From Bacillota bacterium (GTDB taxonomy: Bacteria; Vulcanimicrobiota; JAJTBE01), in assembly GCA_021287065.1 (NCBI GenBank), contig JAJTBE010000196.1, forward strand, positions 2,539 through 66,538: a stretch of 64,000 nt of DNA, given 5' to 3'. The translations under genes and the position numbers were made by a program. The notes beneath the pieces are model-generated. The model was given only the letters and a program-made list of their open reading frames with translations, was not told the DNA's origin and ran no database searches. This document shows, one piece after another, positions 13,321-31,040 of this stretch. How positions within the stretch are numbered: the stretch's first letter is position 1; each line of letters starts with the position of its first letter.

Positions 13321-13616
13321 ATTTATGCCCCCTGCCTGATTTTAATATTTTTATACTTGTAAACTTTCGGGTTGAACCTTCTGATTATGTGTTAAAGAGC
13401 TGCTTTGGGAATAACCCGCAAAAATCGGTAAATCATTCCGTATCACCATTATACCTTAATTTGACTTAAAAATGAAGAATCTTCTTCCCTCCGCCCGGAA
13501 ACCTTTTTTGTCCGGTTTTTGTTCATGCATTTAAAATCAGTTGTTTTATGCAGGTTTGTTAAATTCCGGGCTTTAAAGAAATCGAAATTTCCGAGGTTAA
13601 TTTTATAGTCAAAAGG

Positions 13617-13634
13617 TTGTGAAAATATTCACAG
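13617..13634. promoter_or_regulatory. Rex-box-like palindrome TTGTGAA-N4-TTCACAg, followed by a sigma70-like TTGACT-18-TAAAAT
   Basis: Seen directly: ttgtgaaaatattcacag at 13617-13634, a 17/18 match to the Rex operator consensus TTGTGAAnnnnTTCACAA. A -35/-10-like pair lies at about 13647-13682. It is 205 bp upstream of hydG. Confidence 0.3.
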
Positions 13635-13838
13635 CCATTATAAATCTTGACTGTAAGGCAGCATGAGGAATAAAATGTACGGATGCAGATTTATAGAAAT
13701 GCATTCTGAGCGAAATAGACCGGAATTTCCGGCAAATCAGCAGAGAAACAGGCACGGGAAATATTCCGGAACAACCGGAGCTTACCGGTAAAGCGAAGGC
13801 GGACGGCAGCCGCCGCCTCCCAAAGAAAGGAAAGCATT

Positions 13839-15275
13839 ATGCTTAAACTCAACAATCACAATAACAACAATCATAACAATCAGAAACTCGAAAACTTCAT
13901 TGATGAGGATCTAATAATAAAGACCCTTGAAGCCACCAAGGATTGCAGCCGTGAATGGGCAAAAAGAATAGTGGCAAGAGCGCTTGAGATGGAAGGACTG
14001 AATTTCTTCGAGGTATCATGCCTTCTCAACTGTGATGACCCGGAAGTTCTTGAGGATATATTTGCAGCAGCCAGACAGATAAAAGATAAAATTTACGGCG
14101 ACCGAATCGTTATGTTTGCCCCCCTGTATATTTCGAACCTTTGCGGAAACGAATGCCTCTACTGCGCATTCAGAGCCACCAATAAGGAACTTGCAAGAAG
14201 AGCACTCACTCAGGAAGAAATTGAAAGAGAAGTAAAAAATCTGGTGGATCAGGGACATAAGAGAGTCCTTATGGTTGCCGGAGAATCATACCCCCACGAG
14301 GGATTCGAATATGTTCTCAAAAGCATCGACACAGTATATAAAGTTCAGTCGGGCAACGGAAGCATCAGAAGAGTTAATGTAAACATCGCCCCTCTGGAAG
14401 TTGAAGAGTTCAGACAGCTCAAGGAAAAAGGAATCGGAACATTCCAGTTATTTCAGGAAACTTACCATGTGCCTACTTATGAAAAAATGCATACAGGCGG
14501 AAAGAAAAAGAACTTCCTCTGGAGGCTTTATGCTATGGACAGAGCTTTCCAGGCAGGCATAGACGATGTTGGAATCGGAGTTCTCTTCGGACTTTATGAT
14601 TATAAATACGAAATTCTCGCACTGATGCAGCATATCAAACATCTGGAAGACGAATTCGGAGTAGGTCCCCACACTATCAGCGTCCCCAGACTCGAACCCG
14701 CAGACGGATCAAGCGTATCAGTTGAACCGCCCTTCCCGGTAACTGACGAACAGTTTAAGAAGATAGTGGCAATTCTCCGCATAGCGGTTCCTTACACCGG
14801 AATTATTATGTCCACAAGAGAAACCCCTAAAATCCGCAGAGAGACCTTCGCTGTAGGCGTTTCGCAGATTTCCGCAGGTTCACGGACAAACCCCGGCGGA
14901 TACTCTGTTGACGACTTCGAGGAACACTCATCCCAGTTCTCACTCGGAGACCACAGAGCGCTTGATGAAGTTATCAACGATCTGGTAACAATGAAATATA
15001 TTCCTTCATTCTGCACCGCCTGCTACAGACTGGGCAGAACAGGCCACGACTTTATGGATATGGCAAAACCCGGAGATATAAAATACCATTGCAGCCTCAA
15101 TGCACTTTCCACCCTGCTTGAGTATCTCAACGATTACGCTTCACCCCGCACGAAAGAAGCCGGAGAGAAACTTATCAGAGAAAAACTTGATGCATCTGAT
15201 GACGAAAAATGGAAAACCATAGCTTCAGAAATGCTTGAACAGGTTAAATCAGGCAAAAGAGACTGTTTCATATAG
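13839..15275 (+). CDS. hydG: [FeFe]-hydrogenase maturase HydG (radical SAM tyrosine lyase)
   Basis: N-terminal CGNECLYC (CX3CX2C) radical SAM motif. C-terminal CTAC-X22-C auxiliary cluster motif characteristic of HydG. ~478 aa. Confidence 0.8.
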   Translation: MLKLNNHNNNNHNNQKLENFIDEDLIIKTLEATKDCSREWAKRIVARALEMEGLNFFEVSCLLNCDDPEVLEDIFAAARQIKDKIYGDRIVMFAPLYISNLCGNECLYCAFRATNKELARRALTQEEIEREVKNLVDQGHKRVLMVAGESYPHEGFEYVLKSIDTVYKVQSGNGSIRRVNVNIAPLEVEEFRQLKEKGIGTFQLFQETYHVPTYEKMHTGGKKKNFLWRLYAMDRAFQAGIDDVGIGVLFGLYDYKYEILALMQHIKHLEDEFGVGPHTISVPRLEPADGSSVSVEPPFPVTDEQFKKIVAILRIAVPYTGIIMSTRETPKIRRETFAVGVSQISAGSRTNPGGYSVDDFEEHSSQFSLGDHRALDEVINDLVTMKYIPSFCTACYRLGRTGHDFMDMAKPGDIKYHCSLNALSTLLEYLNDYASPRTKEAGEKLIREKLDASDDEKWKTIASEMLEQVKSGKRDCFI

Positions 15276-15320
15276 AGAATCGCCTCCCCTTGAAAAAAAC
15301 ATAAGAGAGGACACGAATTT

Positions 15321-16553
15321 ATGCGCAAAACACCTGAAAGTCTCAGGCTTCACATTGGTATATTCGGCAGAAGAAATGTGGGAAAATCATCCCTCATCAA
15401 CTGTATTGCCCGTCATTCCGTTTCCATCGTTTCGCCTGAGGCCGGAACCACTACGGATCCGGTAAAAAAAGCTATGGAACTGCAGCCTCTGGGACCGGTT
15501 CTCCTCATCGACACAGCAGGGCTTGATGACGAAGGCGAGCTGGGTGAACTCAGAATCAAAAGAACAAAAAAGATTATCGAAGCAACGGAGCTTGCCATCC
15601 TCGTTACGGAAACGGGACAATGGGGAGATTTCGAAGACGGTCTTGTAAAGGAATTCAACGAAAAGAAAATCCCCACGATTCTTATAATCAACAAAGTTGA
15701 TGAAAACCCGCCATCTGCAGACGAAGTTGCAAAACTTAAAGAAGTCTGCAAATCGGTTCTTTCGGTTTCAACGGTTACAGGAGAAGGCGTTGAGGAACTC
15801 CGGCAGGAGATTATCGAAAAAGCTCCCCAGTCATTCCTCGAATCCCCGCCAATCATCAGGGATCTCATCGAACCCGGCGAAACGGCAATTCTCGTTATTC
15901 CCATCGATTTTGAAGCCCCCAGGGGAAGAATTCTTCTGCCCCAGTCCCAGAGCATCAGAGATGTAATCGATAACAATTCGATATGTATTGTGGTTAAGGA
16001 AACCGAGCTGGATCAGTCCATAGCCAATCTGAAAGAGCTTCCGAAGATTGTGGTTACCGACTCTCAGGCATTCGACAGAGTTAAGAGATCCACACCGGAC
16101 AATGTGCTTCTCACATCATTTTCGACCCTGTTTGCCCGTTACAAAGGGGATCTTCTTACTTTTGCAAAGGGTGCGAAAGCTATAAGCCAACTTAAACCCG
16201 GAGATAAGGTGCTTGTTGCGGAAGCCTGCACACATCATCCCATCGGCGATGATATCGGAACTCTGCAGATTCCCCGGAAGTTTGCGGCATTTCTCGGATT
16301 TGAGCCGGAATTCGAATGGGCGCACGGAACCAATTTCCCTGAAGATCTGACAAAATTTAAGCTCATCGTACACTGCGGAGCCTGCGTCTGGAATAGAAAA
16401 CAGGTTCTCTCAAGAATCCAGAATGCTATGTCTCAGGGAGTTCCAATCACTAACTACGGAATTTCATTAGCTTATGTAAACGGCATTTTCGAAAGGGCTT
16501 TGACTCCCTTTGTGGATCAATATCCCGAACTGAAAGAGCTTTTTGAAAAATAA
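15321..16553 (+). CDS. hydF: [FeFe]-hydrogenase maturation GTPase HydF
   Basis: G1 P-loop GRRNVGKSS. C-terminal CTHHP...HCGAC (CxH...HCxxC) FeS-binding motif typical of HydF. Immediately downstream of hydG. Confidence 0.8.
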   Translation: MRKTPESLRLHIGIFGRRNVGKSSLINCIARHSVSIVSPEAGTTTDPVKKAMELQPLGPVLLIDTAGLDDEGELGELRIKRTKKIIEATELAILVTETGQWGDFEDGLVKEFNEKKIPTILIINKVDENPPSADEVAKLKEVCKSVLSVSTVTGEGVEELRQEIIEKAPQSFLESPPIIRDLIEPGETAILVIPIDFEAPRGRILLPQSQSIRDVIDNNSICIVVKETELDQSIANLKELPKIVVTDSQAFDRVKRSTPDNVLLTSFSTLFARYKGDLLTFAKGAKAISQLKPGDKVLVAEACTHHPIGDDIGTLQIPRKFAAFLGFEPEFEWAHGTNFPEDLTKFKLIVHCGACVWNRKQVLSRIQNAMSQGVPITNYGISLAYVNGIFERALTPFVDQYPELKELFEK

Positions 16554-16565
16554 ACGGAAATAAGA

Positions 16566-16607
16566 AAAGCCGCTGCTTCTGAGAAATAACAGGCAGCGGC
16601 TTTTTTG
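16566..16607. terminator. Bidirectional rho-independent terminator between hydF and ruvC
   Basis: gccgctgc-N16-gcagcggc stem followed by TTTTTT on the + strand and an A-run on the other side. Sits between convergent genes. Confidence 0.55.
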
Positions 16608-16647
16608 TATTAAAAAATCGTTTAACTGCTCACAAAAAGAGCGGAGA

Positions 16648-17127
16648 TTATTCCAGATCTCCCATTCTGTAGTAGCAGATTGCTATGCCCAGAGCGTCTG
16701 AGGCATCAACGGGCATTTCCTCATCGCCGAGGTCGAGTTCCATCTTTACAACATCTGCTACAGCGTCTTTTTTTGCCCTGCCGAACCCTGCAAGGCATTC
16801 CTTAACCTGAAGGGGTGTAAACTCCACCACGGGCACATTATGCTTCCCTGCGGCAAGGAGAGCTATCCCCCTTGCTTCACCCACAGTCAGGGCTGTTTTG
16901 GTGTTTCTGTTAAAAAACAGTGATTCGAGAGAAAGTACATCGGGTTTGTATTTTTCAAATAATTCCATCAGACTGTCAAAAAGGTAACAGAGGCGTTTGC
17001 CTTTATTGTCGGTCTTGGGCGTGCGAAGACAGCCGTAAGCAAGGGCTTTCCCTTCTTCCCGTTCATCAACGGAAACAATACCGTATCCCATTTTGGCAAG
17101 CCCCGGATCAATTCCGAGTATGACCAT
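16648..17127 (-). CDS. ruvC: Holliday junction resolvase RuvC
   Basis: MVILGIDPGLAKMGYGIV N-terminus, 159 aa, acidic catalytic residues. Conserved pairing with a yebC-family gene. Confidence 0.8.
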   Translation of the reverse strand: MVILGIDPGLAKMGYGIVSVDEREEGKALAYGCLRTPKTDNKGKRLCYLFDSLMELFEKYKPDVLSLESLFFNRNTKTALTVGEARGIALLAAGKHNVPVVEFTPLQVKECLAGFGRAKKDAVADVVKMELDLGDEEMPVDASDALGIAICYYRMGDLE

Positions 17128-17882
17128 TATTTGCCGCCCATTGATGCCATAATCTCTTCGGGAATGTCGAAATTGGCGTAAACATTCTGGACATCTCCCT
17201 GTTCTTCAAGAGCGTCCATAAGCTTGAAAACTGCTTCAACCTGGGCTTTATCGGTAAGTTTAACTTCGTTTTTGGCGATCATCGAGATTTCAGCCGAATC
17301 CAGTTTAACTTTCTTTGCCTCAAGGCCTCTTTTAACCTGAGCGAAGTTGGTGAAATCGGCGGTTACGACAAATATCCCGTCTTCTTCCTTAACATCATCT
17401 GCGCCTGCGTCGAGGGCAATTTCCATAAGTGTGTCTTCATCGGTGGAATCTGCACTGACCTGAAAAACTGCTTTTTTCTCGAACATCCATGAAACGCATC
17501 CGGAATCGCCCATTGTTCCGCCGTTTTTGGCAAATGCGGTTCTGACTTCGGGAACGGTGCGGTTTCTGTTTTCAGTAGCTGCTGCAACGATAATAGCTAC
17601 TCCGTGGGGACCGTATCCTTCGTACATAACCTCTTCGATACCTTCGCCGCCCTTTTCGCCTGATGCTTTTTCGATGGCTCTCTGAATGTTGCTGTTGGGC
17701 ATATTAACGCTCTTGGCGTTTTCAACAGCGGTTGCAAGTCGGTAGTTGCCGGCGGGATCGGCTCCGCCTTCTTTTACGGCAAGCATAATTTCCTTGGAAA
17801 CGCGGGTAAAGATTTTACCTTTTGCTGCGTCAACTTTTTCCTTTTTAACCTTAATATTGTGCCATTTGGAATGACCGGACAT
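17127..17882 (-). CDS. yebC: YebC/PmpR family DNA-binding regulator
   Basis: MSGHSKWHNIKVKKEKVDAAKGKIFTRV signature N-terminus. 251 aa. Confidence 0.8.
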   Translation of the reverse strand: MSGHSKWHNIKVKKEKVDAAKGKIFTRVSKEIMLAVKEGGADPAGNYRLATAVENAKSVNMPNSNIQRAIEKASGEKGGEGIEEVMYEGYGPHGVAIIVAAATENRNRTVPEVRTAFAKNGGTMGDSGCVSWMFEKKAVFQVSADSTDEDTLMEIALDAGADDVKEEDGIFVVTADFTNFAQVKRGLEAKKVKLDSAEISMIAKNEVKLTDKAQVEAVFKLMDALEEQGDVQNVYANFDIPEEIMASMGGK

Positions 17883-17977
17883 TGTTACCTCCGTTTTTTT
17901 GCTGTCAGATAAAGAGTTTTACAGTTTATCCGTATTTCCTCTGTTGAGGAAATCAGATATTGGTTTTTATGTTCATA

Positions 17978-20959
17978 CTAATAGATTTTATAAACATACA
18001 GATCCCGTTCATAGATGGTCGGCTTGCCCAGGAAATTCTGCAGATAGGTATGCACTCTTTCCCTTGCGCTGTTTTTGAGATACTGATTGTGAACAACAAT
18101 ATACTTGATACGGTTTTTCTTCAGTTCATCAAGATACTGTCTGAGGAGCTTTTCATCAGGGGGAGAAATGGAATATCCCTTTTCCAGATTGAAAAGATAG
18201 ACAGTAAACTGATTTTCATAAATATAAACGGGAATGGTTCCTTCCACCTTATAGGGTATGCCTTTTCCGTGGAACATCTGATAATAGAAATACTCACCGG
18301 GGAGTAGTTCGCCTTTGACTCTCTGAATGGGAGAATCGATGATGCCGAAGTCTTCCGAATCCTTTGCAATTTCCTGATAGAACGAAGGCACATGGAGATC
18401 GCTCAGAGGGATTGGATACGGAGCAGGCGACAACAGGCAAACTTCGAAAAGCATTGCAAGGGAAAGTATGGAAACAAGCAGCCTCTGCTGTGTTTTACTC
18501 CATCCCCTGAAAAGCTGGGTGAGGCCATAGCCTGCAAGAACTCCCAGAGAGAGCATAGCTATAATATTAAACCTGTAAGGTATGGAAATCTGATTGAAGA
18601 ACGGGAAATACTGATAAAACAAAATGTACAGGAAGAAGCGCCACTTGAGATGGATATTCTCCGTTACATACAGATATGGTCCGAGAGAGAAAGAGATAAA
18701 GAACAGTGCGCAGAAAGTCCAGAACCAGATATATTTTCTTTTTCTTGCCATTACTATTCCGGCTATGGCAAGTATTATGGTAAGCCATCCTGCGTAGGAT
18801 GTGCGGGTGAGTCTGTCAACGGTATATGTTCTGTTTATATGATCCTTGCCCATGGTTACATAATCGGCAAGCATACTTACATTACGGAATCTTTTTGAAA
18901 GATACAGGTCGATAAATTCGATGGATCTTTCCCTTTTTACCAAGCCTGCAGCTCCGCTAAGGGAAGCTTTGAATGTGATGAAAAGCGGAAGAATAAGGGA
19001 TCCGGCAACGATTCCCATAATCAGCAGTTTTCTGAAAGGCTGTCTTGCCCAGCGGTTGAAAAAGTCGAAAATACCTGCGGGTCTTTCGCCGGGTTCCGGT
19101 TTGATGATTTTAGACGAAGCAGTCTTTGAAAGGGCGAAAACGATGGCGCCGATTGCTATTACCACACCGGTGAAAGCGAACCAGTATTTCATATATCTTT
19201 CGGGAGAAAATCCCTGCGCGTAAAGGGCGACAGGGGGAATCACGATGGACAGAATCAGAAAACCTGTGATAATAAGGTTTTTTCTGATGGTTTTACTTTT
19301 TTCCGCAGGTGTGTTCTTCTCTTCGGGAAGTTCGGGGTTGAAATAGAGTCTGTTGAGGAGATTCCACCGCAGATAGAGTTTTTTATTAATAATATGGATA
19401 AGAACCGCTATAAAGATAAGAGCGGAGACTGCCAGACCGCCGGCGATTCCACCGACTCCTGATGACTGGGTTATATCCTGATAAAAAATCACGATGCGGA
19501 GCATATTGCCAAGGCAGACAAACATAGCCAGCCAGGGGACGATAACGGCAGCATACTCGCCGAATTCATTGGCTGATGATGGGGCAGCAGCTGTTTTATC
19601 AACCGAGACCGCTGAGCCGGGGGATTTCTTTTCCCCTTTCATCTGCATATAAGTCATAATAAGGGCAATCAGCAATGAAGAGACAGCGATAATTCCAACA
19701 CTTGCAACAATACCGGAGCCTGCAAGCCTGACTGTGGTTCCGAGATTGAGGATTCCGGTAATGCCGATGGTGTATAAGCCAAAAATGAGATACATTTTGA
19801 TTTTTACAAAACCCTGTTCCTTGCTGTAAAACAGACCCTGAAGGCTGTAGGAAAGATTCCTGATGCCCGGCTTGTAATACCAGACCGAATAAACAAGGGA
19901 AATTGCAAAAATCCCTATCATTCCGTAAAAGACTGCCATCACAGGCAGACCTGAATTTACAGGGGAGTAAAGTAAACCGGGAAGCACAAAGGCAGTAACT
20001 GCCAGACAGAAAACAACGAGAAGAAGGGAAATTCTACCGAGGGTTTTCTGAAGCCATCCTTTGAAGCCTGCGGTTTTTCTGCCGCCTCTGGAGAATGAAC
20101 TGCTAATTATGCCGAGAAGTGAAACTCCATGTCCTCTGTCCGTTAAGCCTGCAAGATGAGGATGTTTGGCAACAGATGCAACAGCTTTGGAAATTTCGGG
20201 ATCCGCATCAAGAAGATTCATTTTTTCCAGCAGATTCTCTTTTTTAGGGGTTTTCACAGCCGAGCGGGGATAAGCTTTTCTGTAAAGGAACCATCCGAAT
20301 GCAATAAGGAAGAATACTGCAAGAATTGTTGCAAAATTCCCGTAATAGAAAGCTCCCAGCGCACACATAAAAAGGCTTACACCTGCAAGGATTGGGAAAA
20401 GCTCGCCTTCCTCGTGGAGCATGCGTGCGAAGAAGTAAAGAAACAGGGGAATCCAGGCGATATTGTATGTTTCTGAAACGCCGCTGGTTATGTAAGCAAG
20501 CATGTATGCGGTGAATGCATATACGGCACCTGAATAAAAAGCAGCTTCCTTATTTTTGATAAAGTATCCCGCAAGCAGATAAGCGCAGAAAGCACCAAAA
20601 ATCAGGTTTGCCAGAACAATTATATTGTAAACCACCTGAACGGGGAAAATATACTGAAGGGGCAGCGACCATATAGCGCCGAGGGGATCGATAAAAAACA
20701 GGTTTCCGCCGTAGGGATAGTTCAGAAGGGAAGTAAAAAGGGGAAGTTCGCCTTCGTCAATAAGTCTGCGTTTAACCCACCAGAACCCCCAGACATGTTT
20801 CCACATGTCGCCTTCGAGGTCTCCGATTACATACTGAAAAATGTATCTGATGAGGGGATATGTGTAAATCAAAGAAAAAACGCCGTACATCAGTATGGCG
20901 AAAAGAGAATTAAAAGGTTTAATCTCCCTTTTTATAAACGAAATCAACTTTTTCAGCAT
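17978..20959 (-). CDS. Large polytopic membrane protein (993 aa), possibly YfhO/GT-C-like
   Basis: More than 20 predicted TM helices with large loops. No diagnostic motif recognised, so the family is a guess. Confidence 0.5.
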   Translation of the reverse strand: MLKKLISFIKREIKPFNSLFAILMYGVFSLIYTYPLIRYIFQYVIGDLEGDMWKHVWGFWWVKRRLIDEGELPLFTSLLNYPYGGNLFFIDPLGAIWSLPLQYIFPVQVVYNIIVLANLIFGAFCAYLLAGYFIKNKEAAFYSGAVYAFTAYMLAYITSGVSETYNIAWIPLFLYFFARMLHEEGELFPILAGVSLFMCALGAFYYGNFATILAVFFLIAFGWFLYRKAYPRSAVKTPKKENLLEKMNLLDADPEISKAVASVAKHPHLAGLTDRGHGVSLLGIISSSFSRGGRKTAGFKGWLQKTLGRISLLLVVFCLAVTAFVLPGLLYSPVNSGLPVMAVFYGMIGIFAISLVYSVWYYKPGIRNLSYSLQGLFYSKEQGFVKIKMYLIFGLYTIGITGILNLGTTVRLAGSGIVASVGIIAVSSLLIALIMTYMQMKGEKKSPGSAVSVDKTAAAPSSANEFGEYAAVIVPWLAMFVCLGNMLRIVIFYQDITQSSGVGGIAGGLAVSALIFIAVLIHIINKKLYLRWNLLNRLYFNPELPEEKNTPAEKSKTIRKNLIITGFLILSIVIPPVALYAQGFSPERYMKYWFAFTGVVIAIGAIVFALSKTASSKIIKPEPGERPAGIFDFFNRWARQPFRKLLIMGIVAGSLILPLFITFKASLSGAAGLVKRERSIEFIDLYLSKRFRNVSMLADYVTMGKDHINRTYTVDRLTRTSYAGWLTIILAIAGIVMARKRKYIWFWTFCALFFISFSLGPYLYVTENIHLKWRFFLYILFYQYFPFFNQISIPYRFNIIAMLSLGVLAGYGLTQLFRGWSKTQQRLLVSILSLAMLFEVCLLSPAPYPIPLSDLHVPSFYQEIAKDSEDFGIIDSPIQRVKGELLPGEYFYYQMFHGKGIPYKVEGTIPVYIYENQFTVYLFNLEKGYSISPPDEKLLRQYLDELKKNRIKYIVVHNQYLKNSARERVHTYLQNFLGKPTIYERDLYVYKIY

Positions 20960-21136
20960 CTTGGGATCATTTTATATTAAATAGATGTAAATTTCAATCC
21001 TGAGAAAGGTTTCATGTAAAGTTTTTTAGAGGAATTGGTTTGGGTTAAAAGAATCTTTCCCCAGAAGAACGGGGAGAAACCCAGTGCTGCTGAATTATGG
21101 CATGTATTTATCTGATCGCTAACGGGTATTGGAGCG

Positions 21137-21380
21137 GTTTGCCCAGCTCCCGGAGAAAACTTTTTGAAAAAAGTTTCCTCCGGACCTCCATCCCAAAACT
21201 TTTGAATTGAGGGACCGACCAGGGGGTTAGGACCAACGGACCGGGAGTTTAAGGGACCCTCAGAGGGAACCACGCTTTTTTGGAAAAGCGGGTTTCCCTC
21301 CGAACCTCCTTCCTTGAAAAACAGGAGTATAGGGTTGGGATTGGAGTAGTTTTTACTGATTCAGCGGCATTGAGGGAGAG
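21137..21380. repeat. Dispersed intergenic repeat element, copy 1 (full length with 5' hairpin module)
   Basis: Shares a ~170-nt core with 34780-34950 and 58858-59025: gggaccgacc...ggaccgtcagagggaaccacgcttttttggaaaagcg...ctccgaacctcc.tccttgaaaaacaggagta...ggcattg.gg. Its 5' module gtttgcccagctcccggagaaaacttttt recurs at 31041. Confidence 0.8.
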
Positions 21381-21420
21381 ACTGACACCATTACAAATCC
21401 GGCATGTTTAAGGAGTTTTA

Positions 21421-22623
21421 ATGACTGCAGACAAAAAACAGAAGGTTCTGATTGTTGACGATACTCCGGAGAATATCGATCTTATCAACGGAATCCTTGA
21501 AAATCATTACAGTATAAAAGCGGCACTCAATGGGAAAAAGGCGCTGAAAATCGCTCAATCTCAGGATCCTCCCGATATTATCCTCCTCGATATTATGATG
21601 CCTGATATGGACGGGTATGAAGTCTGCGGACAGCTCAAATCGAACCCTGCCACAGCATCGATTCCTGTAATTTTTATTACAGCTCTTTCAGAGATAGAAG
21701 ATGAAAGAAAAGGGCTGGATATGGGCGCGGTGGATTACATAACAAAACCGGTCAGCCCACCTGTGGTTCTCTCAAGGGTGAGAAATCATCTTGAACTGAA
21801 GCGTTACAGGGATGATCTGGAAGCAATGGTAAAGGAAAAAACCGCAGAACTTCTGGAAGCTGTAGCCGCGAGGGAAAGAATCGAAAGTGAACTGAAAATT
21901 GCCAGAGATATTCAGTTGAGCATACTTCCCCGGACATTCCCGGCTTTTCCCGACAGAACGGACTTCGACATTCATGCCCTTATTGTGCCTGCCCGTGATG
22001 TGGGCGGTGATTTTTATGATTTTTTCCTAACAGGTGAAAACCATCTGTTTTTCTGCATCGGCGATGTTTCAGGTAAGGGAGTTCCCGCAGCACTTCTTAT
22101 GACACTTCTTAAAAAGCTTGTAAAAGTAAAGGCAATGGAAGTTGACAACCCTGCCGAGGTTCTGGAATTTGTGAACCGGCATTTTTACGCGGATAACGAA
22201 GCCTGCATGTTTGCCACAATCTTTTGCGGAATGCTGGATTTGAAAACAGGAATAATGACATATTCAAACGCAGGACATGAGCCTCCACTGATTATCTCCC
22301 CGGAATGGAGCGTAAGGGAAACAAGGGGCGCCAACGGCGGAGCTGTTGGGTTTGAACATGAAACACAATACGAAAACGGAACAATAGAAATCAGGAACGG
22401 CGAAATCATCGGGCTTTATACCGATGGAATCACAGAAGCTTTCAACAGCAACAACAGAATGTATTCCAGAGAGAGGGTTGAAGCCTGGATAAACAGCCAC
22501 AAACCCCACTCTGCGAAAGATCTTGTGGAATCACTGTACAACGAAATAAAGACCTTTTCAGAAGGATCCACAAGAGGAGACGACATAACCGTTCTCGCGG
22601 TTAAATACCATCCGGGACAGTAA
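21421..22623 (+). CDS. Response regulator receiver domain fused to a PP2C-type (SpoIIE/RsbU-like) Ser/Thr phosphatase
   Basis: REC: LIVDDTPENI...ILLDIMMPDMDGYEV. Coiled coil, then PP2C motifs (GGDFYDF, GDVSGKG, DDITVLAV). Confidence 0.8.
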   Translation: MTADKKQKVLIVDDTPENIDLINGILENHYSIKAALNGKKALKIAQSQDPPDIILLDIMMPDMDGYEVCGQLKSNPATASIPVIFITALSEIEDERKGLDMGAVDYITKPVSPPVVLSRVRNHLELKRYRDDLEAMVKEKTAELLEAVAARERIESELKIARDIQLSILPRTFPAFPDRTDFDIHALIVPARDVGGDFYDFFLTGENHLFFCIGDVSGKGVPAALLMTLLKKLVKVKAMEVDNPAEVLEFVNRHFYADNEACMFATIFCGMLDLKTGIMTYSNAGHEPPLIISPEWSVRETRGANGGAVGFEHETQYENGTIEIRNGEIIGLYTDGITEAFNSNNRMYSRERVEAWINSHKPHSAKDLVESLYNEIKTFSEGSTRGDDITVLAVKYHPGQ

Positions 22624-22641
22624 ACCTATCAGAGGGACTGA

Positions 22642-23034
22642 CTACCAGACCATGCTTCCTATTTCTTTTCCGTCAATAAAGCTATATCTTACCTGGGTGT
22701 TGGAAAATTTGGTATTGGTGATATCAGCCTTATTAAGGTTTGCGCCTGAAAGATCCGCTCCGGTAAAATCAGTGCCTGTAAGGTTTGCCTCATAGAGATA
22801 AGTCATTCTCAGATCAGCTTCCGTAAGAACTGCCCCTGAGAGATTTGCTTTTGAGAGGTCTGCTTTTACAAAGCTTGTTTTGATAAGAAATGCACCGGAC
22901 AGGTTAATGCCTGGGAGCGACCATTCCGCAAAGTTGCCTCCGTTTAGGTCGATATGGGCTTCCGGGTTTTCATTTCTCCACTGATTGAATGCTTCCGGGC
23001 CTTTTTTTATTTGTTCGAAACACTCATTGTTCAT
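22642..23034 (-). CDS. Pentapeptide-repeat protein
   Basis: Tandem A(D/N)LxG repeats: ANLSGAVLTEADLRMTYLYEANLTGTDFTGADLSGANL. Confidence 0.75.
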   Translation of the reverse strand: MNNECFEQIKKGPEAFNQWRNENPEAHIDLNGGNFAEWSLPGINLSGAFLIKTSFVKADLSKANLSGAVLTEADLRMTYLYEANLTGTDFTGADLSGANLNKADITNTKFSNTQVRYSFIDGKEIGSMVW

Positions 23035-23331
23035 TTTATATAACTTCCTTTTAGTTGAATCTGTTTATTCATTAGCCTGCAGAAAATTAATTCCTTCTAT
23101 GTCCGCTGCACGGCAGAGAAATGAAAAAACACTGTCAGAATCAATAGAATCCGACATGTATCAACCCTGATGGTCTGATTTCAACAGAAAAAACTTTCGG
23201 ATTATATCCACATGATTGTCTGCGGGAGGATTTTACCTGACTCAGTGGAATTTTCCGTTTTGAGAATATCAAATAAATACAAACCAGAAACGACTGACTG
23301 AAGATCACAAATACAAAGCCCGGAGGAAGGC

Positions 23332-24102
23332 ATGGAAGTAAGAAACAATACCAGATTTTTAATTTTCACCCTGATTTTGATAGCTCTTATGGGAGTTGTT
23401 ATCTATATGTTCAGGGAACACCCTATGGGTGCGGATTTTTCCCAGTTTAAAATGCTCAATCATCAGGATTTAGCCAATCCGGGCGAAAATTTCGGAAAAC
23501 GGGTTGTGGTAAGGGGCAGAGTTACCCCGGCTGCACCCGGTAAGTATGTGGATTTTGCCAATCAGAAAAATGTTCTCGGATATATCGAAGCTAAAACTGA
23601 TCCAACGGCAGGCAACAATGCAAAGCCTTCCTATGTAAGGTTTGGAGCTGTTGATTTCTTTATTCAGGTGGACGCAAGCAGAATTCTGGTTGTGGGGCAG
23701 CCTGAGCAAATCATCGACACCCGCAACAGAATTTATGCCACATCAACACCGGGCCAGTATGTGGATATGATTCGTGAAGGCAATGACTACTCCATATTCG
23801 GCACAATAGGCAAAGACAACGCCGGCAACTATATTCTCATACCCTACAGAGTTACATTCCAGGAAATTCAGCCTGTGGCTAAAGAAGCTGCGGAACTTAA
23901 CCGTAAAATGGCATTTATCCAGTACCTTTCGATTTTTGCCATAGTGGCAGCCTATGTAATAGCACTTGCAAAAGGCGGAGTATTCGGACCTCCGGAAGCT
24001 GAAGAGGGAAACGGCGAAAAGAAAGAAACAGCTTCCAGCGGTTCAGTTGATGAAAATTCCGGTAAAGATTCCAAAGGAAACAAAAATCAAGGAGATGCAT
24101 AA
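23332..24102 (+). CDS. Hypothetical bitopic membrane protein
   Basis: N-terminal and C-terminal TM helices flank a ~170-aa soluble domain. Acidic/Gly/Lys-rich tail. Confidence 0.5.
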   Translation: MEVRNNTRFLIFTLILIALMGVVIYMFREHPMGADFSQFKMLNHQDLANPGENFGKRVVVRGRVTPAAPGKYVDFANQKNVLGYIEAKTDPTAGNNAKPSYVRFGAVDFFIQVDASRILVVGQPEQIIDTRNRIYATSTPGQYVDMIREGNDYSIFGTIGKDNAGNYILIPYRVTFQEIQPVAKEAAELNRKMAFIQYLSIFAIVAAYVIALAKGGVFGPPEAEEGNGEKKETASSGSVDENSGKDSKGNKNQGDA

Positions 24103-24105
24103 ACG

Positions 24106-25203
24106 ATGGAAGATCTCAAGGCTCTTCTTTCAAATCCCGACGATTCATCTTACAAAAAAGCACTCGAAAGCATTGCCGAGCTGACAGCTTCGGCAGGCGA
24201 CGGCGGAGCGCTGAAAGTTCTTGCGGAAATTTTCGAACAGTCAGACGGCAATACCACTGCCAAAAACAGAATAATCAAGATAGCCGGCGGGCTTGAACAC
24301 CCTTCGGCTGTTGATTTTATCAAATCGGCCCTTAACGACGATCTTTTCGAAGTAAGGCGGACTGCAGCTTTATCCCTTAAACTGCTTACTGATGAAGACT
24401 ATTACGACCATATTTACAAAAGTGAAATAGGCCATCACTTCAGAAGGAGCTTCTGGTGCTCCATGGACTTTATGGAGGAAGGACAGGAAGGCGGCAGCGA
24501 TTGCGGCGCAATAATGAAAAGCGTAGCCTCATTGTTTGGCGCTCTCTCATCAGGTTGGACTTATCCGGATCTGGTGAGGGAAACATTCTTTGTTTCCGGC
24601 AGGAAAAAGCCCCTTGAAATGGCTTCCGATGCCAAGGTATTCTTCAAAAATTTCAATTATGGCCTGGAAAAATCGCTAAAAAATTCCGAGCATATCCTGA
24701 AGATGTTTGGCAGTATGGCAAAGGTGTCAAAAGCTGAAACCGGAGAAAAAGAAGAACTGGAAGATATACTCCGCTGCCTTAAGCTTGCTCTTTCAACAAG
24801 ACTGAAGGATCTGGAAGAGGGAATAACCTGCTTTCTTGCCGCTTTTCACTTTTTCAGAATGGAATACAATATCGCAGTATCTCCGGGGCAGTGCCAGCCC
24901 ATAGACGAACCGGGCAGAGAGCTGCAGCAGGTGAATGAGGAATTCAGACAGGCTATAGCTTCGGGTATGGAAAAGCACAGGGATTTCAGAGGCGGAGACT
25001 ATGTGGATATAGGGGAAACTTCCCGTTTTATCGCTGTTCTCAGGGAAAGAATCGACAAATTCACGGAAGCGGCTAAAGACCTTGCAGCCAAAGACAGTAT
25101 CGAACCTGAAGGTTACCTTTATCTCAAGCGGATGGGCATTTATGCATTTGATATAGGAAAATACTGCCTGCTTCTGCTTTCCTGCTGGACCTGCGAGGAG
25201 TAA
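24106..25203 (+). CDS. HEAT-repeat-like hypothetical protein
   Basis: N-terminal PBS-lyase HEAT-like repeats (AVDFIKSALNDDLFEVRRTAALSL). Follows the previous gene after a 3-bp gap. Confidence 0.5.
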   Translation: MEDLKALLSNPDDSSYKKALESIAELTASAGDGGALKVLAEIFEQSDGNTTAKNRIIKIAGGLEHPSAVDFIKSALNDDLFEVRRTAALSLKLLTDEDYYDHIYKSEIGHHFRRSFWCSMDFMEEGQEGGSDCGAIMKSVASLFGALSSGWTYPDLVRETFFVSGRKKPLEMASDAKVFFKNFNYGLEKSLKNSEHILKMFGSMAKVSKAETGEKEELEDILRCLKLALSTRLKDLEEGITCFLAAFHFFRMEYNIAVSPGQCQPIDEPGRELQQVNEEFRQAIASGMEKHRDFRGGDYVDIGETSRFIAVLRERIDKFTEAAKDLAAKDSIEPEGYLYLKRMGIYAFDIGKYCLLLLSCWTCEE

Positions 25204-25215
25204 AGGAGATTAGAC

Positions 25216-25608
25216 ATGGAATTTACCATAAGAACGAAAACCCGTGACGAACTTTTAAACATAACAAGAGAAATCCAGTCGTATGTAACCGATTCGGGAG
25301 TAAAAAACGGCCTTTGCGTCGTATTTATCCCCCACACCACCGCCGGTGTAACCATCAACGAAGGAGCGGATCCTGATGTGGTAAGGGATATTCTGATGGA
25401 ACTGGACAAGAAAATCCCCTGGGAAGACGGTTACAGGCACGGCGAGGGCAACTCCGCAGCCCATATAAAAGCATCTATGATGGGCAGCTCTGTTACTGTA
25501 ATCATAGAAAACAGAACTTTAAAACTGGGAACATGGCAGCAGATTTACTTCTGCGAATTTGACGGCCCAAGATCAAGGCGAGTCTGGCTGAAAATCACAG
25601 AAGTCTGA
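25216..25608 (+). CDS. YjbQ/UPF0047 family protein (secondary thiamine-phosphate synthase-like)
   Basis: GLCVVFIPHTTAGVTINEGADPDV and HIKASMMGSS signatures. 130 aa. Confidence 0.7.
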   Translation: MEFTIRTKTRDELLNITREIQSYVTDSGVKNGLCVVFIPHTTAGVTINEGADPDVVRDILMELDKKIPWEDGYRHGEGNSAAHIKASMMGSSVTVIIENRTLKLGTWQQIYFCEFDGPRSRRVWLKITEV

Positions 25609-25618
25609 GGAGTCATAT

Positions 25619-26224
25619 ATGGAATACGCCCAGATAGCCCTTCAGGTAGCCCTTGGCATTTCCCTTTCAGCCTGTGCGGGCCTGAGAGCTTTTTTACCTA
25701 TTCTTGTTATCGGAGTTCTCACAAAACTCGGATATGTTCAGGTAGGCAGTTCATTTCAATGGATCGCAGGCACTCCGGCTCTGATAATCTTTGGAACAGC
25801 CACTGTGGTGGAAATAGCTGCGGATAAAGTTCCGGTTCTGGACAATTTTCTCGACTCCATAGGCGTTTTTATAAAGCCTGCCGCAGGAACCGTCCTGTTT
25901 TCAACGGTAGTTGCAAAATTCGATCCCCTTATCGCCCTCACCCTTGGGCTTATTGTGGGAGGTTCCATATCGGAACTGGTTCATCACAAAAAAGCTTTCG
26001 TAAGGGCAGGTTCGACAATGTTTACCGCAGGAACGGGAAACGGATTTCTGTCTGCACTCGAAGATGTGGCAGCAATGGCGGGAACGGCGCTTGCAGTAGC
26101 CGCTCCCTATCTTGCCGCGGTTCTGGCGATTTTTCTCATTATCATTTCATATTTTGCAGTGAAACAGGTCAGTAAATTTATCACAAAAATATTTATGGCG
26201 TTCAACAGAAAGAAAACACAGTAA
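25619..26224 (+). CDS. Hypothetical integral membrane protein
   Basis: 201 aa, about 5-6 TM helices, Gly/Ala-rich. Confidence 0.5.
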   Translation: MEYAQIALQVALGISLSACAGLRAFLPILVIGVLTKLGYVQVGSSFQWIAGTPALIIFGTATVVEIAADKVPVLDNFLDSIGVFIKPAAGTVLFSTVVAKFDPLIALTLGLIVGGSISELVHHKKAFVRAGSTMFTAGTGNGFLSALEDVAAMAGTALAVAAPYLAAVLAIFLIIISYFAVKQVSKFITKIFMAFNRKKTQ

Positions 26225-26257
26225 AACGCCGGGGATTACTTTAAATAAACGGAGGTA

Positions 26258-26950
26258 GTGAAAATGGCGGAAATAACTCCAAAAGAAGCTGAACAGATGG
26301 CAGTTCAGTATATAGAGGCGCTGAAAGAGAGACTGGGAGACAAACTGAAAATGGCTGCCCTTTACGGCAGTCTTATCAGGGACGACTTCAAACCTTCCAC
26401 ATCAGACATAAATGTGATGATTGTTACCTCCGCCCTTGATTTTGAATCACTGAAAAATCTCTCGTCAATCACCGGAAAGGCGAAAACAATATCAAGAATT
26501 TCAACCCTGTTTCTGTGCGAAGATGAAATAAAGCGAATGGCTGAACTTTTTCCCATCAAATTTTTTGAAATCAAGAAATACTTCCGGCTGATTCATGGAG
26601 AAAACCTTGTTAAGGACACAAGGGAAGAATGGAGCTTCTTCAGGGAAAGGGCAAGGCAGGAACTGCTCAACATCGAGCTTCGCCTCAGAAAAGCTCTGCT
26701 GCTGGGGTATCCTTCACCTACAATTATGAGAAAACCCCTGATGGTTTATATTCCCCACCTGATGAGCCTTCTGAGAATTCTGGTGGATATGCCGGAATCA
26801 AAACAATTCAGCGAAGACGACAATTTTCTCAAGGGCCTTATCGAAATAAGAGACAAAATAGAAAATGCCGATATAAAGGAACTGGAAAACGCATACAGCC
26901 TGATTTTTGAGAATATAGATCAGGTTCTTAATGCAGTGGAGAAGTTGTAG
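26258..26950 (+). CDS. Polymerase-beta-type nucleotidyltransferase domain protein
   Basis: YGSLIRDDFKPSTSDINVMIV (GS...DxD minimal NTase motif). Helical C-terminal domain. Confidence 0.55.
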   Translation: MKMAEITPKEAEQMAVQYIEALKERLGDKLKMAALYGSLIRDDFKPSTSDINVMIVTSALDFESLKNLSSITGKAKTISRISTLFLCEDEIKRMAELFPIKFFEIKKYFRLIHGENLVKDTREEWSFFRERARQELLNIELRLRKALLLGYPSPTIMRKPLMVYIPHLMSLLRILVDMPESKQFSEDDNFLKGLIEIRDKIENADIKELENAYSLIFENIDQVLNAVEKL

Positions 26951-27018
26951 GATCCACTCAGGGTTTTTAAAGCTGTTTTGAGTATCAATGTTATATTTCA
27001 TCTGACATATTCAGGCTT

Positions 27019-28146
27019 TTAATCATTTTTTTTCACCATTTTGTAAAACAGGCCCGGGTAAGTAATCTGCCTGATGTTCTTATTATTCAGATCATAAACA
27101 TACAAACCGCCGTTGATTTCATTGGAAAAAACAATTTTACTGCCGTCGGGATTTACATCCATATTTAAGCACAATTCTTTTATATAATCCGGCATTTCAA
27201 ATTTCAACGGTGATGAATTGCCGTTGATATCGGTCAACTCAATATACTGCCTGGGTTTTACTTTGTCGGAAACATTTTTAATCTTTTCAATCCGATAAAG
27301 AATAAGCTTATCTTTTCTAACAAATCCACTGAAAAAATAATCTATATTAGCCAACCTTACCTCTGGATATTTTTCAGAATTTATGCCTACTTTCTGAAAT
27401 GAATTTTTCTTTAACGCAACAATAAAATTATTTGCTTCTGAATACAAGGGAAATGTGATTTCATTTGCACTGTATATGATATTGTTCATACCAGTCGAAA
27501 CATTGTAATCATAAAGATCAAACTGCTTATTATCAAAATCATTGAACCCCAGGTATATATGGGCAGGATCTACCGGAAATATTACGGTTAAAATGCATGT
27601 TTTTCCCATAGCCTGACCATCTTTGCATTTCACGGTTTTGTTCAGGTGGACAAAATGACTTTTTTGTGACAGGTAATTATAAATAATGAGTTTTATATCT
27701 GCTTTTCCATTATTTACTACTGTATCATCTAATACATAATATGTATTGTTGAAGTCCAGAATAGCCTTATTTTTGTAAGGAATCGTAATCAAATTAATAG
27801 AATTGCCGGCATTATTCAGATAGGCGTCATTATAAATAAACACCTCATTTCCATTTCGAACTTTCAAACTGCTATTGCCAGAAAAACTGCCGCTGCAATA
27901 ATTGAACAAATTATAATTGTAGTTAAATTCATAAAGAGAAGAGAGTTGATTACCCGTTAAATACAACTTCATTAGCTTTGATTTGCTGCTTGTTCTGACA
28001 AAAAGGATATTGTCATTATCGAGCCATACAGGATTGTGATCGGAGCAATCTTTGAAAAAATCGGAAAAATACTGAGACATATATATGGAGCTTACAATTA
28101 TGAGTAAAACTAATAATACTTTTATTCTTTTACTTTTTTTCATCAT
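27019..28146 (-). CDS. Hypothetical secreted Asn/Tyr-rich protein with a C-terminal PD40-like motif
   Basis: Signal anchor (VLLVLLIIVSSIYM), NPDGSKIVFS near the C-terminus. Strongly AT-rich coding sequence compared with its neighbours. Confidence 0.55.
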   Translation of the reverse strand: MMKKSKRIKVLLVLLIIVSSIYMSQYFSDFFKDCSDHNPVWLDNDNILFVRTSSKSKLMKLYLTGNQLSSLYEFNYNYNLFNYCSGSFSGNSSLKVRNGNEVFIYNDAYLNNAGNSINLITIPYKNKAILDFNNTYYVLDDTVVNNGKADIKLIIYNYLSQKSHFVHLNKTVKCKDGQAMGKTCILTVIFPVDPAHIYLGFNDFDNKQFDLYDYNVSTGMNNIIYSANEITFPLYSEANNFIVALKKNSFQKVGINSEKYPEVRLANIDYFFSGFVRKDKLILYRIEKIKNVSDKVKPRQYIELTDINGNSSPLKFEMPDYIKELCLNMDVNPDGSKIVFSNEINGGLYVYDLNNKNIRQITYPGLFYKMVKKND

Positions 28147-28363
28147 TATTTCCGGAATTATAAAAAAAATGTTTTATATCTGTTATGTATTGATTATTGA
28201 AAAAGTATAGAATCCCTGTTACAGATCAGATATTAATTATTGGCTACTCAAAATGAGCAGGTGTTTCGCCTGTTTCTGATCTCAAAACAGAACTTAACCG
28301 CCATTGAATCTTACAACTGCAAGCTTTGCAAGGGATCTTGGGAGAGGTTTCCGGAGATTGTTC

Positions 28364-30046
28364 TTATCGAGTTGGGGATTCCTGATAGAGGCTTCCTGTT
28401 ATTCTTTGTGCATTTGCCTGCCAGGTATATTGTTTCAGCATTTTTTCCCTTGCGTTTTTACCAAGTTCTGATCTGAGTTTTTCATCTGCTGCCAGTTTTT
28501 CCAGTGCGCGGGCAAAGGGTGCCGATTCATCGATAGCTGTCATCAGGGCATCTTTGCCGTTTACAAAAACATCATTCATCTGTCCGCCTTCGAAACAGAG
28601 AATTGCTTTTCCCGCAGCCATATATTCAAAAATCTTAATGGGAGATGAGTATTCCTTGCCTTTTCCAATGGGCGAAAGAAGAATATCGCAGGCATCCAGA
28701 AATGCAGGGACTTCACCGGGGGGGATTTTTCCGGTTACAAAAACCGATGGATTTTTGCCCACTTCTGAGTCTTCATTCCGGGAAAAAAGTTCTTTTAGGG
28801 CGTTTCTGATAGGTTTCACGGAAATTCCGGCATCAAAAAGTTTTTTAACAAGGGGAGCCAGTTCAGGACCTTCTCCAATAAGAATGAATACAAGCTGAGA
28901 GTTGGCGGGGATGGTCTTTATAATGGCATCGGCAAGAAAATCCACGCCGTGCCAGGGGTAAAAGCTGCCTGAAAATCCTGCGGCGACTCTGTTTTCTATT
29001 CCTGTTTCCCTGCGTATTTCGTCTCCGCCGCATCCGGGTCTGAATTTTTGGGCGTCAGCTCCGTTGGGATTTATAAACACCTTTTCCGGCACTGCTCCTG
29101 CAGCTATTATATCTTCCCTGAGTTTTCCGGAAATGGCGGAAAACCTGTAAGCACCTGAAAGACAGATTTTTTCATAAAGACTTATAAAAAACCGCAGCAA
29201 GCCTCCGGTATTACTCCATCTGCCGCTTTCCCAGCCCAGAAGGGCATTCATTTCAAGAACAAGCGGAATTCCGAGAAAAGCGGAGATTATAACGCCGCTT
29301 ATGCAGTATCTGCCGTGTCTCTGATAAATAAAAGCCGGTTTGATTTTTTTAATTATTCCCATTGCCCTGAATGTAAAAACCATATCAAAAAGCATATCAA
29401 CAATGCCGCCGGTGAGGAGGTTTCTGAACAGCGGCGGAATAATCCGGTATTCCCCTTCCACGCCGTCCATTTTGCCGGGTGAAATTATCACCGGTTTCCA
29501 GCCTGATTTGACAAAACCGCTGAGGGTGCCTTTTACATGGGATGTGGAACCCCTGAAGGTTTCGAGAAGCTGAAGTGAAGGGCAGAGAAAGACGAGGGAT
29601 TTCTCTGTTGGCATTACGGATTGGAATTTACGGTTTTTGACAAACGAAACACCAACCGACGCAGCGCATGTATAAACCAGAGCTGCGGCAGCTACGCAGG
29701 CAGAGAGGAAAACAACGGGAAGAAACATCAGTATCAGGGGGATTAGCCTGAATGGTTTGACAGGGATGATGGAATCTTCGCCTTCGATCCGGATATATTT
29801 TTCTCCAGCGGGAAACCCCAGAAAGAACAGGCTCAGAAGCAATTCCTTGAAATAATTCAGGGGAGGAGTTGATTTTACAACAACAGCGTCAAAGCCGGGT
29901 TTGGATGATTTGCGGAGTTTCAGAAGTTTAGCCGGAGAAAAGGAAAAGCCTCCTGCCGTTTGGAAAGAGGCGCCGGGAAATTTTGCCGTAATACAGGAAT
30001 CCGGAGCGGACGCTGTCTGCCCCGGATGAATATACAATATTTTCAT
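28364..30046 (-). CDS. Membrane-anchored family 1 (GT4-type) glycosyltransferase
   Basis: N-terminal TM region. C-terminal GT1 motifs (FYPWHGVDFL, FVTGKIPPGEVPAFLDACDILLSP, IFEYMAAGKAILC). Confidence 0.75.
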   Translation of the reverse strand: MKILYIHPGQTASAPDSCITAKFPGASFQTAGGFSFSPAKLLKLRKSSKPGFDAVVVKSTPPLNYFKELLLSLFFLGFPAGEKYIRIEGEDSIIPVKPFRLIPLILMFLPVVFLSACVAAAALVYTCAASVGVSFVKNRKFQSVMPTEKSLVFLCPSLQLLETFRGSTSHVKGTLSGFVKSGWKPVIISPGKMDGVEGEYRIIPPLFRNLLTGGIVDMLFDMVFTFRAMGIIKKIKPAFIYQRHGRYCISGVIISAFLGIPLVLEMNALLGWESGRWSNTGGLLRFFISLYEKICLSGAYRFSAISGKLREDIIAAGAVPEKVFINPNGADAQKFRPGCGGDEIRRETGIENRVAAGFSGSFYPWHGVDFLADAIIKTIPANSQLVFILIGEGPELAPLVKKLFDAGISVKPIRNALKELFSRNEDSEVGKNPSVFVTGKIPPGEVPAFLDACDILLSPIGKGKEYSSPIKIFEYMAAGKAILCFEGGQMNDVFVNGKDALMTAIDESAPFARALEKLAADEKLRSELGKNAREKMLKQYTWQANAQRITGSLYQESPTR

Positions 30047-30062
30047 ATAAAATCAGTCGTAA

Positions 30063-30890: not shown

Positions 30891-31040
30891 ATACCGGTAC
30901 CTCCTGATTTCTGCCGGCTTAGCCCGGTGGAGCACCTATCCTCTATACTATTATACGATCTTGAAGGTTATTTTACAACATGCACCGGGGATTATCCCCA
31001 TGAATTAAGGCATGGATTCATCCGAACGCTCACGAGAATT

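Follow-up and report, generated by a model that had tools for sequence, protein, structure and literature searches.

Several intergenic spacers of the DNA analyzed here (64,000 nt, in the following called the window) share a sequence rich in hairpins, and the question is what this sequence represents: a family of mobile or formerly mobile non-coding repeats, a family of structured RNAs, or a small gene. A preliminary description of the locus had named a MITE/REP-like element and a structured small-RNA family as its two candidates; the evidence collected here favors the former, while the latter is unlikely. In this study, we analyzed the copies, their hairpin modules, coding potential, ends and flanking genes, and compared the window with independently assembled contigs and with known bacterial repeats. 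The repeat family is real and new, and it is of a kind of bacterial repeat already known. With moderate confidence, we regard it as a lineage-specific family of non-coding, non-autonomous interspersed repeats of a mosaic MITE/REP-BIME/CIR type, consisting of selfish or neutral DNA.

Copies of the repeat

Direct reading and alignment revealed a core of about 170–175 nt common to the positions 21193–21378, 34766–34948 and 58846–59020, always on the + strand. Thereby, the three core copies of the preliminary description were found again where it had placed them. Pairwise blastn of the cores gave best segments of 78–87 nt with 91% identity (E 1e-23 to 1e-26), and each of three conserved blocks of 23–27 nt was matched exactly three times when at most three mismatches were allowed, with 0 matches expected from 100 shuffles. 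A fourth core, also on the + strand, is located just outside the window on the independent contig L026. Four cores and two fragments were thus seen directly within approximately 69 kb. The whole elements of this multi-copy family have a size of 170–300 nt. The following pieces were recognized:

Copy 0 (fourth core), L026:1–55, about 2.4 kb left of the window, + strand: found by nhmmer (E 2e-10); upstream of an operon
Copy 1, the most complete, 21080–21378, + strand: left end, hairpin module A, G-rich linker, hairpin module B, third small hairpin, right end; in a divergent spacer
Copy 2, 34700–34948, + strand: module A (43-nt hairpin 34707–34749 and tail), linker, module B (34821–34878), right end; just after a + strand gene
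Copy 3 core, 58846–59020, + strand: linker, module B and right end, without module A; antisense, between two − strand genes
Solo left-end piece, 30987–31095, + strand: homologous to 21068–21164, with a 28-nt exact match at 31047–31074; between two tandem − strand paralogues (30063–30935 and 31081–31998)
Inverted right-end copy, 58410–58440, − strand: CCCCTAATGCTGCTGAATCAGTAATA..., BLAST match of 19 nt with 95% identity (E 2.6e-4)

The copies differ by presence or absence of whole modules, with copy 3 lacking module A, copy 2 lacking the left end, and the left end occurring alone at 30987–31095. Copy 2 begins 8 nt past the stop codon of the gene 33649–34692. For copy 3, the right boundary (after GGCATTGGGG) could be placed with single-base precision from the end of an independent contig, and contig L026 starts within the core of copy 0 (ACAGGAGTATTGGGCTTGGGGATTTGGGTACATTTTGCTAATTCAGTGGCATTGG). 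The solo left end had been listed as a 27-nt fragment. The site is real, but the exact match comprises 28 nt (21137–21164 = 31047–31074) and is the terminal part of a 74-nt stretch with 82% identity (21091–21164 vs 31001–31074). The hairpin of this piece is complete only together with the native 3′ end of the coding sequence of gene 31081–31998 (− strand), to which homologous sequence is present in the paralogue at 30063. The statement that all copies have + orientation is true for five pieces and not for the inverted right-end fragment at 58410–58435. This fragment (58410–58440) can be read as a separate inverted partial copy or as the left terminal inverted repeat belonging to a 612-nt composite that reaches from 58410 to 59020.

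Genomic context

All copies are intergenic, and they occupy three of the window's four largest intergenic gaps. The neighbors are ordinary chromosomal genes, i.e. the hydrogenase/Mrp operon, HydF/HydG, RuvC and YebC, and furthermore genes for Ser/Thr kinases with TPR/WD40 repeats, a response regulator-SpoIIE phosphatase, glycosyltransferases, a PLD-family enzyme and a CoA-disulfide-reductase/rhodanese/TusA/DsrE fusion. Enzymes of mobile DNA (transposase, integrase, Y1/RAYT, reverse transcriptase) are not encoded in the approximately 69 kb seen. Three of the four cores lie 43–107 nt 5′ of a + strand ORF (the response regulator-SpoIIE gene, an 87-aa ORF, and the hydrogenase/Mrp-like operon); for copy 0, the distance to the Mrp/group-4-hydrogenase-like operon is 94 nt. 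This group-4 [NiFe] hydrogenase operon with Mrp-like antiporter subunits extends over L026:149–3420 and the positions 1–8000 of the window, and the maturases HydF and HydG are encoded at 13839–16553; an anaerobic lifestyle of the host organism is probable. Its label at NCBI, 'Firmicutes bacterium', may not be precise.

The tandem paralogues 30063–30935 and 31081–31998 encode 290 and 305 aa without a Pfam domain and share about 72% nucleotide identity with a period of 1021 nt, and the spacer between them is filled by the solo left-end piece. When the two paralogues were used for an empty-site comparison, the similarity stopped inside the coding regions.

Other repeats were observed near copies 0 and 3. 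A second, GC-rich repeat family forms a 41–44-nt inverted repeat (58497–58540 and 58762–58806; 97% complementary) which flanks about 220 nt and contains the hairpin CAGGCGGGGACGCCTG. Directly after copy 0, at L026:61–95, the similar sequence CCGGGTCAGGCGGGGGCGCCTGAGG of this family is present, and it appears that the second family accompanies the main repeat. Immediately 5′ of copy 3, there is a 57-nt tandem duplication (58716–58772 and 58809–58865; 93-nt period, 91% identity), which overlaps the core start of copy 3 and suggests a local duplication or a nested insertion. Further downstream, a perfect 12-bp hairpin (ATAAGTGGAGGG-TGTT-CCCTCCACTTAT, 61630–61657) between the − strand genes 59128–61653 and 61684–63084 may be a terminator or an operator.

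Hairpin modules and internal anatomy

The element is a mosaic of two homologous modules with long, AT-centered hairpins, each of them followed by CCTCCGRRCCTCC, and a G-rich linker with GGACC motifs between them. The parts of copy 1 and a hairpin of the same style next to copy 3 are:

21150–21189, + strand: module A, 34-nt hairpin CCGGAGAAAACTTTTT/AAAAAAGTTTCCTCCGG (21150–21183, from the hairpin scan), then the tail ACCTCC
21190–21252, + strand: linker, CCAAAACTTTTGAATTG and then a G-rich tract with repeated GGACC/GGGACC motifs
21253–21309, + strand: module B, long imperfect palindrome GGGACC..TCAGAGGGAACCACGCTTTT-TTGG-AAAAGCGGGTTTCCCTCCGAACCTCC, homologous to module A
21310–21378, + strand: 3′ part, CTCC-TTGAAAAACA-GGAG hairpin, G-rich stretch and right end ...TACTGATTCAGCGGCATTGAGGG
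59021–59058, + strand: third same-style hairpin (TTCAGGGGAATCTTTTTT/AAAAAGTTCCCCCTGAA), directly 3′ of copy 3

Module A (21150–21183 and 34707–34749) aligns end to end with module B (21263–21300, 34836–34863 and the equivalent in copy 3), and the pattern common to both is TCAGAGG(G)AA...TTTTTT/AAAAA...TT(T)CC(C)TCCGRRCCTCC...AAAAC. A hairpin module of about 65 nt is thus duplicated within each element. The palindromes span 34–62 nt, and the two modules of an element are directly oriented. The linker between them contains four to five GGACC/GGGGACC motifs, and that of copy 1 has 91% identity to 34766–34799. A tail motif of the CCTCC type, TTYCCYTCCGRRCCTCC, occurs five times, every time at the 3′ foot of a hairpin, while 0.14 occurrences were expected.

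Both stem-loops named in the preliminary description exist. The central one forms the top of a far longer imperfect palindrome (about 26 bp), which reaches from GGGGACC to CCTCCC, and the small CTCC-TTGAAAAACA-GGAG hairpin 3′ of module B has a C-A mismatch on the + strand of copy 2. A 5′ module common to copies 1 and 2 had also been described. Structure and tail are indeed common, but much of the stem sequence differs; although the module A stems of the two copies are largely different in sequence, both fold almost perfectly. For module A of copy 1, a DNA fold of −11.3 kcal/mol was calculated (z −4.3).

When all 64 kb of the window were scanned for hairpins, these elements accounted for five of the seven strongest. 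The structure is kept among the copies: in the six modules, 92.9% of the pair cells are standard pairs and three pairs are changed on both sides, values matched by only 4 of 500 shuffles, with the covariation analysis having little statistical power as it is based on 3–6 sequences. When the structures were shifted by one column, standard pairing fell to about 72%. The consensus folds of both strands are equally good (−37.7 vs −36.1 kcal/mol), and departures of the G-U vs A-C type are present on both strands, favoring neither. Since no strand is singled out by this wobble/mismatch pattern, it suits a constraint on a DNA palindrome.

On the − strand of copy 2, a small hairpin (GAGGTT-CGGAGGGC-AACCTC, 34858–34877) is followed by GCTTTTTT, which gives a terminator-like pattern. 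The long module B hairpin would be a competitor of this structure. In copies 1 and 3 the pattern is less pronounced, so that it is probably incidental.

Coding potential

Small ORFs overlap the copies, so that the conserved sequence could be thought to encode a small protein. In all three copies, − strand ORFs start at the same GTG and comprise 62, 98 and 173 aa. Only their first few codons are alike, and their lengths and C-termini are unrelated among the copies. A 6-nt and then a 1-nt indel occur within 48 nt of the GTG, and the latter, at 48 nt, shifts the frame between copies. A codon-like substitution pattern, which according to the preliminary description would have pointed to a protein, was looked for and is absent: substitutions are spread evenly over the codon positions (3/4/3 between copies 1 and 2; 7/11/12 between copies 1 and 3). 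None of the six frames is free of stops in all copies, and the six-frame translations of the three copies, joined as one query, had no match in 5.8 billion proteins. The ORFs on the + strand have no shared start and are not hydrophobic. A small protein, be it encoded by the − strand MVPSDGP ORFs or by another short ORF, e.g. for a type I toxin, was rejected in view of the missing conserved frame, the even substitutions and the indels, and we consider this reading extremely improbable. The earlier view that the small ORFs reflect conservation of DNA and not of a protein is thereby confirmed, and annotators should be warned off these spurious ORFs of 62–173 aa.

Element ends and junctions

The right end of the element reads ...TACTAATTCAGTGGCATTGGGG and terminates with ...GGCATTGGGG. 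Its reverse complement recurs at 58410–58435 and matches all right ends; a degenerate 26-nt right-end pattern detected the three right ends and 58410–58435 only, with 0 hits expected. A weaker reverse-complement match to the right end is found at 21080–21098, where the homology of copy 1 to the solo left end reaches its left limit. With these inverted partners at 58410–58435 and 21080–21098, copy 1 (21080–21378) and the 612-nt composite (58410–59020) are bounded by inverted-repeat-like ends. They can be written as CCCC(T)AATGC...GCATTGGGG, and they look like terminal inverted repeats. A clear left inverted repeat is present only in copy 3, where it bounds the 612-nt composite containing other repeats, and copy 2 has no inverted partner of the right end at its left side.

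Target-site duplications, whose detection had been suggested in the preliminary description, were sought at both flanks of copies 1 and 3 and at the right flanks of copies 0 and 2. None was found consistently, a weak negative in view of the few and possibly old copies. Also, no conserved target sequence of 4–5 nt was evident at the left junctions.

Assembly breaks and copy number

Short-read contigs of the same organism from Logan (k = 31, run SRR17235527), which are independent of the assembly of the window, were placed as follows:

L026: window −2399 to 9875
L020: window 9876 to 21151
L001: window 21333 to 31056
L021: window 31045 to 34795
L025: window 58991 to 66693

Apart from base 3 of L001, the sequences of these contigs and of the window agree completely. 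Contig ends occur in the solo left end and in each of the copies 0 to 3, and six of the eight informative ends are located inside repeat pieces. Three ends lie exactly 30 nt (k−1) inside repeat boundaries that were defined independently, i.e. 34795 for the start of the shared core at 34766, 31045 for the end of the exact match at 31074, and 58991 for the right terminus at 59020. A de Bruijn graph breaks in this way when the last 30-mer of a repeat is also present in a copy with other flanks. None of the 30-mers at these breaks occurs twice in the window. Taken together, breaks at k−1 inside the boundaries and 30-mers that are single in the window indicate further near-identical copies elsewhere in the sample. 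This implies that the family is larger than the members seen here, its size being deduced from assembly break points and not counted. Also, the repeat family explains the fragmentation of the short-read assembly of this organism at these points. Apart from the repeat family, L026 and L020 abut without overlap at 9875/9876 inside the − strand gene 8979–10190, for which coverage or a strain variant is a possible cause.

Structured RNA or mobile DNA

Alternatively, transcription of the + strand could yield a family of paralogous structured RNAs, with the copies functioning as small RNAs or, in cis, as leader or 3′-UTR elements. In such RNAs, the CCUCC...CCUCC tails (in copy 1, ACCUCCUU) would resemble the anti-Shine-Dalgarno end of 16S rRNA and could base-pair with ribosome-binding sites, be it those of the downstream gene or those in distant mRNAs, while the GGACC-rich tract could bind a protein. 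The conserved hairpins with some compensatory changes are in line with this reading, as are the CCTCC tails placed always just 3′ of a hairpin and the + strand ORFs that lie downstream of three of the four cores. The + strand RNA folds are better than those of shuffled sequences for copy 1 (z −2.2) and copy 2 (z −4.4), but not for copy 3 (z −1.1), which moreover is not followed by a + strand gene and lies antisense with respect to both neighboring genes. Consensus scans detected neither a sigma-70 promoter nor a canonical intrinsic terminator common to the copies on either strand; Rfam 15 gave 0 matches at gathering thresholds in the whole window and, around copy 3 with E up to 10, only noise (at most 20 bits, E at least 0.58). 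Furthermore, the 5′ boundaries and the module content vary between copies, which is unlike sibling small-RNA genes, the G-U and A-C mismatches favor neither strand, and the covariation comes from 3–6 sequences. A family of structured RNAs is therefore unlikely, even if it deserves some weight.

Mobility by another mechanism was considered as well. Here, a tyrosine (HUH/Y1) transposase would have moved the copies, as hairpin-ended elements, in the form of single-stranded DNA; they would be of the palindrome-associated type derived from IS200/IS605 or of the REP/RAYT type. The enzyme would recognize the two related hairpins and not inverted ends. Insertion into the lagging-strand template would then explain the uniform orientation as well as the missing target-site duplications. 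This agrees with the two homologous imperfect hairpins in direct orientation per element, with the failure to see target-site duplications, and with the + orientation of all five oriented pieces in what is a single replichore according to the monotonic rise of the cumulative GC skew in the region. A cut-and-paste DDE mechanism does not predict such uniformity, but the count is small (roughly 1 in 16 by chance) and one right-end fragment is inverted. The second hairpin has a central position in the element and is followed by about 70 conserved nt, the left junctions do not share a target of 4–5 nt, inverted-repeat-like ends are present although the mechanism does not need them, and a Y1 transposase is not encoded in the approximately 69 kb seen. 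We therefore judge this route of mobility to be rather improbable. A more novel proposal, in our opinion improbable as well, comes in two versions. In one, the copies would be functional RNAs of a poorly known bacterial lineage, with two homologous long hairpins bearing anti-Shine-Dalgarno-like CCUCC tails and a GGACC-rich tract that binds protein or forms a G-quadruplex, and as a multi-copy family they would block or sequester ribosome-binding sites or else a regulator that binds GGA/GGACC; in the other, they would be relics of hairpin-guided single-strand DNA transposons with strict strand polarity.

The reading as interspersed repeats of the MITE/REP/CIR type is preferred because of the non-coding, modular and partly truncated build, the inverted-repeat-like ends, the palindromes at DNA level, the mixed gene context and the assembly breaks at the repeat boundaries; the lack of a promoter, terminator or Rfam match agrees with it. 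The reading is weakened by the negative outcome of the search for target-site duplications, by a left inverted repeat that is clear in a single copy, by the lack of a gene for a mobilizing enzyme in the approximately 69 kb seen, and by the uniform orientation of the five oriented pieces. In the model proposed here, a transposase or recombinase encoded at another place of the genome would have generated the copies, acting in trans. This enzyme would recognize the inverted ends and/or the hairpins, and the element would have spread between the genes of an uncultured bacterium's chromosome. In transcripts, the hairpins may incidentally stabilize RNA, cause pausing, or mask the ribosome-binding sites of neighboring genes. 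Elements are present in the 5′ regions of the response regulator-phosphatase gene and of the energy-converting hydrogenase operon, and their hairpins and CCUCC tails could alter the expression of these genes. The family could also be used as a marker for strain typing.

Other candidates were tried and rejected. A sigma-54 promoter at the TGGCAT motifs lacks the −12 GC in all copies. For integron attC sites, template/variable repeats of diversity-generating retroelements (DGR), retron ncRNA, type I toxin-antitoxin systems and riboswitches or leaders, the anatomy is wrong and the partner genes are absent. The window contains no tRNAs.

Comparison with known bacterial repeats

Bacterial MITEs are non-coding, multi-copy sequences of 100–300 nt, mostly intergenic, with inverted-repeat-like ends, transcripts that would fold into long stem-loops, and size variants due to internal deletion (PMC2229807, PMC10969869). 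With Correia/NEMIS of Neisseria, ERIC/IRU of enterobacteria and RUP of pneumococcus, the present repeat shares the small size, the non-coding, multi-copy and intergenic character, the stem-loops and, in part, the inverted-repeat-like ends. In contrast to these MITEs, it shows no target-site duplication or TA at the termini, its left inverted repeat is inconsistent between copies, and two internal hairpins dominate in place of pairing between the 5′ and 3′ ends. It has no sequence similarity to any of them and no known parent insertion sequence.

The CerM-associated intergenic repeat (CIR) of Caulobacter/Brucella consists of two long inverted repeats, i.e. two arms with a linker, is strictly intergenic and has stops in six frames (PMC2229807). 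This is similar to the arrangement of module A, linker and module B. However, CIR exposes a GANTC methylation motif in the loop and has no terminal inverted repeats, whereas the present repeat has TTTT/AAAA-rich loops, a CCTCC tail after each arm, partly present inverted ends, and an unrelated host lineage. REP, BIME and REPIN sequences are extragenic imperfect palindromes which are mixed with short motifs in mosaics, conserve their hairpins at DNA level and can stabilize upstream mRNAs (PMC3116915, PMC3337134). The mosaic of extragenic imperfect palindromes with other short motifs and the conservation of hairpins in the DNA are common to the present family. REP sequences are 20–40 nt in length, typically form inverted doublets (REPINs) and reach hundreds of copies next to one RAYT gene. 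In the present family, by contrast, palindromes of 34–62 nt form two modules arranged as direct repeats, and the approximately 69 kb seen contain no RAYT gene.

The BOX elements of Streptococcus pneumoniae are modular (boxA-boxB-boxC) with a variable number of modules, intergenic, and hairpin-forming, and a function of them is unproven. The BOX modules are not homologous to each other, in contrast to modules A and B of the present repeat, which has no sequence relation to BOX. Palindrome-associated elements derived from IS200/IS605 have subterminal hairpins at both ends and a short conserved target 5′ of the left end, and they lack inverted ends and duplications. Here, two related hairpins and no duplication were seen, but the second hairpin is internal, a common target at the left junction is missing, and inverted ends are partly present. 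Integron attC sites are imperfect palindromes in one orientation that separate short cassettes next to an integrase gene; arrays of this kind differ in that the present copies are 10–24 kb apart among ordinary chromosomal genes, the RYYYAAC/GTTRRRY core sites are absent from the hairpin feet, and there is no integrase.

Distribution outside the window

An exact-pattern scan of species-representative genomes with the block TCCGRRCCTCCNTCCTTGAAAAAC showed no occurrence among the matches listed, which is a soft negative, and exact-pattern scans of JGI metagenomes with TCCGRRCCTCCNTCCTTGAAAAAC and GAACCACGCTTTTTTNNAAAAGCG gave 0 matches. In viral contigs, the core block had 0 matches; a single match to the right-end pattern is located inside a phage coding sequence with unrelated flanks and was rejected as a chance hit. 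Copy 2 had no match in plasmids and phages by BLAST in distant mode. The proteins encoded nearby are also distant from their relatives, which for the 841-aa neighbor all have at most 59% identity and come from mixed phyla, and for the 993-aa neighbor of copy 1 have at most 57% identity and are encoded on ENA contigs of 0.2–7.6 Mb. The loci of the relatives of the 993-aa protein (about 69 kb) contained no nhmmer match, no similar hairpins and no matching ends, and their synteny differs from that of the window. On this thin sampling, the repeat family looks lineage-specific; if the preferred reading as MITE/REP/CIR-type repeats is true, it represents one more lineage-specific family of small interspersed repeats.

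The 993-aa protein itself (17978–20959) has no Pfam domain and is identical to the NCBI protein LWY06_17915 of the MAG with the label 'Firmicutes bacterium'. Its gene adjoins YebC/RuvC here, while the relatives (about 57% identity) are encoded in large uncultured genomes, on contigs of up to 7.6 Mb, beside the S6-SSB-S18 ribosomal cluster.
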